This document shows positions 57,128 through 57,179 of a stretch of 64,000 bases of DNA, one piece after another. Position 1 is the first letter of the stretch. Each line of letters begins with the position of its first letter. The notes beneath the pieces were generated by a model, which was not told where the DNA came from, ran no database searches, and saw only the letters and a list, made by a program, of their open reading frames with translations. A program made the position numbers and the translations under genes. The stretch comes from Escherichia coli (GTDB lineage: Bacteria; Pseudomonadota; Gammaproteobacteria; Enterobacterales; Enterobacteriaceae): NCBI RefSeq assembly GCF_024223415.1, contig NZ_CP100500.1; one strand, given 5' to 3'.

Positions 57128-57149
57128 ACGGACCTCCGTGGAGGTCCGT
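57128..57149. terminator. Perfect hairpin adjacent to the tRNA 3' fragment
   Basis: ACGGACCTCC-GTG-GAGGTCCGT flanked by A-run and T-rich sequence. Confidence 0.5.
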
Positions 57150-57160
57150 TTATATGAATT

Positions 57161-57179
57161 TGGTGCCCGGACTCGGAAT
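57161..57179 (-). repeat. 19-bp copy of the tRNA-Phe 3' end (island att direct repeat); not a complete tRNA
   Basis: Reverse complement ATTCCGAGTCCGGGCACCA equals the 3' terminus of enterobacterial tRNA-Phe as recalled; upstream sequence does not fold as a tRNA. Confidence 0.75.

Follow-up and report, generated by a model that had tools for sequence, protein, structure and literature searches.

A tRNA-Phe-derived 19-mer as the predicted hybrid attachment site between two tandem islands in Escherichia coli

Satellite phage P4 integrates at tRNA-Leu (leuX). A P4-type integrase carries out recombination between attP of a circular island and a tRNA gene at its 3' end. Because the island brings a replacement for this end, the tRNA gene is rebuilt, and the chromosomal copy that was displaced remains at the far end as a short direct repeat.

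The intP4 islands at pheV and pheU of E. coli (GI-pheV and GI-pheU) were covered by a 2024 study, which included PAI-pheV of CFT073, EC958, 536, Nissle and others (PMC11537424). GI-pheV is bounded by 19-bp and 23-bp repeats derived from pheV, has intP4 as its sole conserved gene, carries modular cargo separated by IS elements, and has its yee module at the end next to attR (PMC11537424). Some GI-pheV were recognised manually, from an intP4 directly following pheV, and LEE was found beyond an attR in strain 12009; the word 'tandem' is absent from that study (PMC11537424). Pathogenicity islands (PAIs) at pheV and pheU share the same integrase, and in E. coli CC73 a papGII PAI is adjacent to another PAI at pheV (PMC7686366). 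Tandem arrays are a standard result when integration leaves a restored core at each end (PMC7192596). In Proteus mirabilis AR379, two ICEs are in tandem at tRNA-PheU (PMC11278526).

The window analysed here is a stretch of 64,000 nt from an E. coli chromosome (NZ_CP100500.1). At 57161-57179 it contains an exact copy, in reverse complement, of the final 19 nt of tRNA-Phe, as claimed in the original prediction. On the + strand the copy reads TGGTGCCCGGACTCGGAAT, which occurs only once in the window. Its reverse complement on the - strand, ATTCCGAGTCCGGGCACCA, is the same as nt 58-76 in tRNA-Phe genes that ARAGORN identified at other loci of E. coli. It spans the end of the T loop, the 3' strand of the T stem, the 3' strand of the acceptor stem, the discriminator base and CCA, and so is a tRNA 3' end and not a match to something else.

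The remainder of a tRNA gene was not present. ARAGORN called no tRNA gene in the window. Rfam at gathering score, including the tRNA families, gave nothing at the 19-mer site, and a permissive Rfam scan of 56900-57500 gave only chance-level matches (E > 1). No further copy of the 19-mer was found in the window at up to three or up to four mismatches, nor any copy of a 23-mer at up to five edits.

The 19-mer has a P4-type integrase to its left and a ParDE/CP4-like cluster to its right (Table 1), as originally described. As judged from the sequence, it is a hybrid att site, in which attR of the tRNA-proximal (right) island is fused to attL of the distal intP4 (left) island. The far end of one island, with the CP4/'yee' module and parDE, would be joined through the 19-nt core to the near end of a second island, which would consist of the replacement tRNA terminator, the 197-nt att arm and intP4, followed by SPATE-bearing cargo. 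Since two island ends meet at the 19-nt core, the site would be attR of the proximal and attL of the distal island at once.

Table 1. Features around the 19-mer and in the two flanking islands; roles of the att core, its arms and the terminator are predicted
Feature	Coordinates	Strand	Basis or description
AbgT transporter	37798-39357	+	left-island cargo
S6/SPATE autotransporter	39669-43493	+	left-island cargo
PhoX	48317-50296	+	left-island cargo
Outer-membrane protein	51623-52363	+	left-island cargo
Phosphoethanolamine transferase-like protein	52538-54040	+	left-island cargo
TPR protein	54399-55472	-	left-island cargo
Left-island cargo nearest the integrase	37798..55472		RefSeq annotation of the 99-100% identical GF60 stretch, and NCBIfam
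intP4, P4-type tyrosine integrase, 421 aa	55698..56963	-	Pfam Arm-DNA-bind_3, Phage_int_M, Phage_integrase
Predicted attL arm of the left island, 197 nt	56964..57160	-	tRNA 3' end to integrase ATG
Second inverted repeat, 8-nt arms, 10-nt loop	57093..57118		CAGGACGC / GCGTCCTG, inside the attL arm
Predicted intrinsic terminator	57117..57151	-	stem AAACGGACCTC/GAGGTCCGTTT (57126-57151), 4-nt loop, tail TTCGTTTCAG
Predicted 19-nt att core	57161..57179	-	exact single match; alignments to intact tRNA-Phe and to the right island end
Predicted attR arm, distal end of the right island	57180..57421	-	between parE stop and core; A+T-rich
parE toxin	57422-57739	-	RelE/ParE-type toxin match
parD antitoxin	57736-57999	-	NCBIfam ParD TIGR02606, 98 bits
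CP4-like 'yee' module of the right island	58068..64000	-	Pfam and GF60 annotation

A perfect hairpin had been noted beside the 19-mer. Its arms were found to be 12 nt each and 100% complementary (57126-57137 and 57140-57151), starting 2 nt outside the position of 57128 given originally. On the - strand the hairpin begins 9 nt after the 19-mer, that is, after the tRNA 3' end. A terminator scan reported an 11-bp stem with six G-C pairs and a 4-nt loop, followed by TT and further T's. The folding energy of the RNA was -35.8 kcal/mol (z = -4.96 versus shuffles). The hairpin has the features of a Rho-independent terminator, namely a G+C-rich stem-loop with a U run on the transcribed strand, close behind the gene.

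The sequence of this hairpin, AAACGGACCTC-CACG-GAGGTCCGTTT, occurs only as part of the intP4 att arm; wherever this integrase follows intact pheV or pheU, the same hairpin sequence stands immediately behind the tRNA gene. The native pheV terminator, GAACCCGCC-CACAA-GGCGGGTTTTT, differs from it in sequence; the native pheV flank contains ...CTATTCTAAAGAACCCGCCCACAAGGCGGGTTTTT. The native terminator lies directly after the tRNA in island-free genomes and after the last attR in island-bearing ones. The hairpin had been described as adjacent to the repeat. Beyond that, it is a predicted intrinsic terminator on the tRNA strand, supplied by the left (distal) island in replacement of the native pheV terminator. 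After integration, the island hairpin would become the terminator of the rebuilt tRNA gene. In the window it is stranded behind a 19-nt stump, where it may stop read-through from parDE.

The same island-type hairpin was seen after pheU in E. coli DH5alpha (L008:2258-2690, in the pheU-cadC region). In K-12 derivatives, pheU is followed by the hairpin, by 113 nt of the att arm of intP4 and by an integrase pseudogene, so that the terminator and 3' flank of pheU in the laboratory strain are an island remnant. A native-looking terminator exists only at pheV.

The attL arm contains, besides the terminator, the second inverted repeat, which was kept in all aligned loci, and a TATAAT-containing stretch (57016-57037 region) just upstream of int. 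A sigma-70 promoter scan of 56700-57800 gave no match.

The integrase encoded at the left end of this arm was 54.4% identical to phage P4 Int over 97% of its length, and its ATG is 197 nt from the 19-mer. A P4-family tyrosine recombinase is therefore found in the window next to the tRNA-derived site. Its ORF is intact and encodes the same protein as the copies at single-island sites. A search for an excisionase gene of the AlpA type found none in the window.

IS elements were also present among the cargo of the left island. The 1274-aa S6-family (SPATE) autotransporter gene is flanked by the AbgT transporter gene and IS elements. The gene at 52538-54040 encodes a 500-aa homologue of the sulfatase-family phosphoethanolamine transferases and is separated from the integrase by the TPR gene. 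Its product matched the CptA, EptA and MCR models weakly (best score 106 bits, cut-offs 400-1250). Rather than an MCR gene, it is an island-borne candidate for lipid A/LPS modification.

To the right of the 19-mer, all genes are on the - strand and point at it, in agreement with the claim that they are transcribed away from the window end. The last operon of the right island is parDE (57422..57999), a toxin-antitoxin pair; Pfam ParD_antitoxin and ParE_toxin matched the same genes in related loci. The order of the module from 58068 is DUF4942, DUF957, DUF5983, CbtA, CbeA/YeeU, a 214-aa protein, DUF987, RadC, an antirestriction protein, DUF932 and a GTPase, the gene of which runs past the window end (64000). 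Pfam identified DUF4942, CbtA_toxin and RadC among the window ORFs and gave the same gene order in L012-L019 (loci from other genomes are designated L). Among the NCBIfam models, only that for RadC matched an ORF of the module. A conserved CP4-like gene order directed towards attR was therefore present.

The attR arm was identical in L013, L018 and L019, where it adjoins native pheV/pheU flanks rather than an integrase. About 160 nt downstream of the parE stop it contains a GGGGCC/GGCCCC hairpin (approximately 57238-57258) with an A/T run on one side. This hairpin was kept in all loci with this island end, and may be a terminator for parDE or a protein-binding site.

Loci for comparison were collected by exact-protein look-up with the 421-aa integrase and with the DUF932 protein of the right-hand module. 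The identical integrase was found directly behind intact pheV, on the yqgA-speC side, in L023 (strain 167), L028 and L029, and directly behind intact pheU, on the dsbD-yjdC side, in L020 and L025. In all five, ARAGORN placed the end of the intact tRNA-Phe exactly 197 nt before the int ATG. The spacer from the 19-mer to int was identical to the sequence after intact pheV in strain 167 and after intact pheU in L020. The integrase was also found behind the ends of SPI-7-type ICEs (L021, L022, L024, L026 and L027). In L021 and L026, which were aligned, a partial tRNA of roughly 50 nt lies at the ICE end before Int; L022, L024 and L027 have the same ICE gene context and no tRNA gene by ARAGORN. The distance from the tRNA 3' end to the ATG was 197 nt throughout.

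The ParDE island end with the 19-mer was followed by different sequences in different loci. It was followed by the native pheV flank and kpsF-kpsE-kpsD in L013 and L018, by a pheU remnant and cadC-cadB-cadA in L019, and by intP4 with different cargo in L014, L016 and L017. In strain EC6563, the same island end and 19-mer stand in front of the K-12-type pheU remnant (cadC side); this pheU island was followed for about 100 kb, within which neither an integrase nor a tRNA was reached.

The sequence downstream of the 19-mer was 100% identical to the window spacer in L012, L015, L016 and L017, where the integrase follows, and 95-100% identical in L014 (95% over the first 113 nt). Between the spacer and the kps flank, identity was about 34%, which is the random level. 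In the alignments, homology of the right island stopped exactly at ...GGGCACCA (...CACCA), and homology to the intact tRNA started exactly at ATTCC.... Island-free genomes have the native pheV flank directly after intact tRNA-Phe. Occupied and empty sites were thus both found, with a precise boundary at the tRNA 3' end, and the single-island and tandem breakpoints were identical.

Both flanks of the core therefore occur independently, the right one without int (L013, L018 and L019) and the left one with an intact tRNA (L020, L023, L025, L028 and L029). Together with the base-exact breakpoints, this indicated two separable elements joined through the 19-nt crossover region. The same int-core-parE junction was present in 219 of 5426 complete E. 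coli genomes.

These alignments bear on two readings in which the 19-mer is no recombination core. In one, its resemblance to tRNA-Phe is due to chance and the hairpin is an unrelated palindrome. Apart from the shortness of the match, nothing speaks for this. Shuffled sequences are expected to give 0.01 matches to the 19-mer even with three mismatches allowed, and the 19-mer with the next 197 nt is identical to the sequence after intact tRNA-Phe genes; the shuffles and this alignment rule the chance reading out, and we give it virtually no weight. In the other, a tRNA-Phe gene or pseudogene lost its 5' part by an unrelated deletion or IS event and left the 19-mer as its stump. The region is indeed rich in IS elements, and 19 nt are all that remains of the tRNA. 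On the other hand, no IS end adjoins the 19-mer, and the breakpoint is at the same base in every locus with this island end, including those with the native pheV or pheU/cadC flank. The repeat length also equals that of the 19-bp att repeats reported for GI-pheV (PMC11537424). The base-exact alignment of the breakpoints effectively ruled out a deletion stump, which we consider extremely improbable. The 19-mer is thus very probably, on the sequence comparisons above, the core of a site-specific recombination site within a tandem array of integrative islands at a tRNA-Phe gene, as originally proposed.

How the junction arose in this lineage is a separate matter. We infer that integrase-mediated integration made it. 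It is possible, although in our estimate the less probable history, that the two-island block is an old composite spreading as one unit, so that the junction was not formed in this lineage and the 19-mer is a fossil and not a working site. Such a block could be carried by homologous recombination of flanking DNA, by co-excision from the outer att sites, or by mobilisation through the neighbouring ICE. The 219 genomes carry the junction at about 91% to 99.7% identity, which fits inheritance or en bloc transfer; the left island is IS-riddled and mosaic, and the search for an excisionase gene in the window was negative. Against an old composite, each of the two partners is found on its own in other genomes, the core matches at all 19 of 19 positions, and the full-length integrase ORF encodes the protein that was also seen at single-island sites. 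Moreover, site-specific integration recreates the same junction each time, so that recurrence looks the same as inheritance. An old composite would bear on the history only, and would leave the nature of the site unchanged.

For integration by the integrases, two orders of arrival may be inferred, and both would give this junction. In the first, the intP4 island was in place before the right island inserted into the rebuilt tRNA gene; in the second, the intP4 island inserted into attR of the right island. The first has only analogy in its favour: EC6563 has this island type before the old pheU remnant, and in GF60 the ICE is nearest to the tRNA.

The nearest genome was E. coli GF60 (NZ_CP172185.1), which was 99.5% identical. 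Window 34010-64000 aligned with it at about 99-100% identity apart from extra IS copies. Left of about 34000 the window differs from GF60 and holds no closing repeat. The second integrase, the complete tRNA and the outer repeats are known from related genomes; the window itself has one att core and one integrase.

The order of the array in GF60, on the tRNA strand, is pheV, an SPI-7-type ICE, a partial tRNA, an IntA island ending in parDE, the 19-mer, the intP4 island, an imperfect repeat, the native terminator and kps. This amounts to three elements, with four copies derived from the tRNA, in about 213 kb. The target gene in this closest relative is pheV. The intact pheV is beside yqgA-speC, on the - strand and to the right of the 19-mer (record 1123715-1123790), and the 19-mer is at record 976291. 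The partial tRNA-Phe after the ICE is about 50 nt long with two mismatches, one of them within the 19-mer. The right-hand island carries leoA and sugar-transport genes and ends with the CP4 module and parDE; the second P4-type integrase was 41% identical to intP4 of the window. The intP4 island is about 65 kb long and ends in another yee module. It is closed by TTCGATTCCGAGTCCGG-CACCA, an imperfect repeat (22/23), after which come the native pheV terminator and kps.

The complete tRNA had been expected within a few kb beyond the right end of the window. In GF60 it was found on that side and on the expected strand, but 147 kb from the 19-mer. Extension to the right also reached the second integrase that had been anticipated, and a third element, the ICE, lies between the 19-mer and the tRNA. 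The absence of a tRNA-Phe within a few kb, which had been proposed as grounds for rejecting the tandem arrangement, was too strict a test, as the GF60 tRNA lies 147 kb away behind the ICE. A third copy of the repeat had been predicted at the far end of the left island; GF60 has it in the imperfect form, and the window has none. The native pheV terminator was also absent from the window. This suggested that the far end of the left island is outside the window or lost.

The intact pheV of GF60 (L006:30816-30891) is a chimera, with a T stem of GGTGG/CCGCC versus the canonical CTTGG/CCGAG. It was still called tRNA-Phe(GAA) by ARAGORN. The stem is altered but paired, so that GF60 pheV carries compensatory changes brought by the long att copy of the ICE. 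The displaced canonical 3' part, about 50 nt, was found at L002:42459-42510.

In window 1-34000, sugar-utilisation and TonB-receptor genes form a mosaic in which IS copies are numerous. The GF60 counterpart of this region is at a different chromosomal place, at about 5.22 Mb of the record. The content of the left island is therefore not the same as in the closest genome. An IS2-like copy at 15765-17095 is followed on the + strand by a 50-codon N-terminal DUF4942 fragment (17268-17417), 64% identical to that of GF60; the DUF4942 gene at 58068-58934 is oriented the other way. The fragment resembles what would be left of another CP4-type island end after inversion or displacement by IS activity within the left island. 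At 10541-10657 (+), Rfam identified an ALIL pseudoknot (116 bits), the ordinary programmed-frameshift element of an IS3-family insertion sequence.

The locus resembles phage P4 and the elements CP4-6, CP4-44 and CP4-57 in having an Int 54% identical to that of P4, with an arm-binding N-terminal domain, and a tRNA 3' end as the target. The right island shares the order GTPase, DUF932, antirestriction, RadC, YeeU/CbtA and DUF4942 with the CP4 elements of K-12. The locus differs from P4 and these elements in its target, which is tRNA-Phe in place of tRNA-Leu, tRNA-Thr or tmRNA, and in its cargo of virulence and metabolic genes; genes for P4 replication or capsid size were not seen.

The likeness to GI-pheV and GI-pheU is closer. 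The left island has intP4 by a tRNA-Phe 3' end, a tRNA-derived repeat and IS-ridden modular cargo; a distal yee module beside attR is likewise a shared feature, and the exact Int protein of the window was found at both pheV and pheU. In contrast to these islands, intP4 in the window follows only a 19-nt stump and not the tRNA gene, because another island (plus an ICE in GF60) lies between it and the tRNA.

From the tandem arrays described in general (PMC7192596), nothing essential differs. In both, the core would be restored at both ends, a second element would use one copy, and a core in direct orientation would be left between the elements; the present pair, a CP4-like/ParDE island and after it an intP4/SPATE island, adds a further combination. 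The SPI-7-family ICE, which is outside the window, is in the same array and at the same tRNA in GF60, L021 and L026, and in the same gene context in L022, L024 and L027. It differs in having a core of about 50 nt of the tRNA and in rebuilding pheV with a different, still base-paired T stem.

The structure is of an ordinary kind, already described and common in E. coli. It reveals no new mechanism, and its value is mainly practical. The 19-mer gives the precise border between two islands, which could easily be annotated together as one large 'PAI', and the junction gives, in principle, primers for separate versus joint excision. The canonical intP4 can be displaced far from the tRNA gene (147 kb in the closest genome), so that methods seeking an integrase immediately after pheV miscall such arrays.

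A more speculative and rather unlikely proposal combines these features. Lying about 270 nt beyond parDE on the downstream side, the stranded terminator could shield intP4 from read-through and in this way determine how often the distal island excises. With its 19/19 core, the site could allow either integrase (the two share only about 41% identity in GF60) to release one island alone, or the two together as a composite, which the neighbouring SPI-7-type ICE could then mobilise. If this were true, the internal hybrid site would be a route for assembling and spreading new composite pathogenicity islands.
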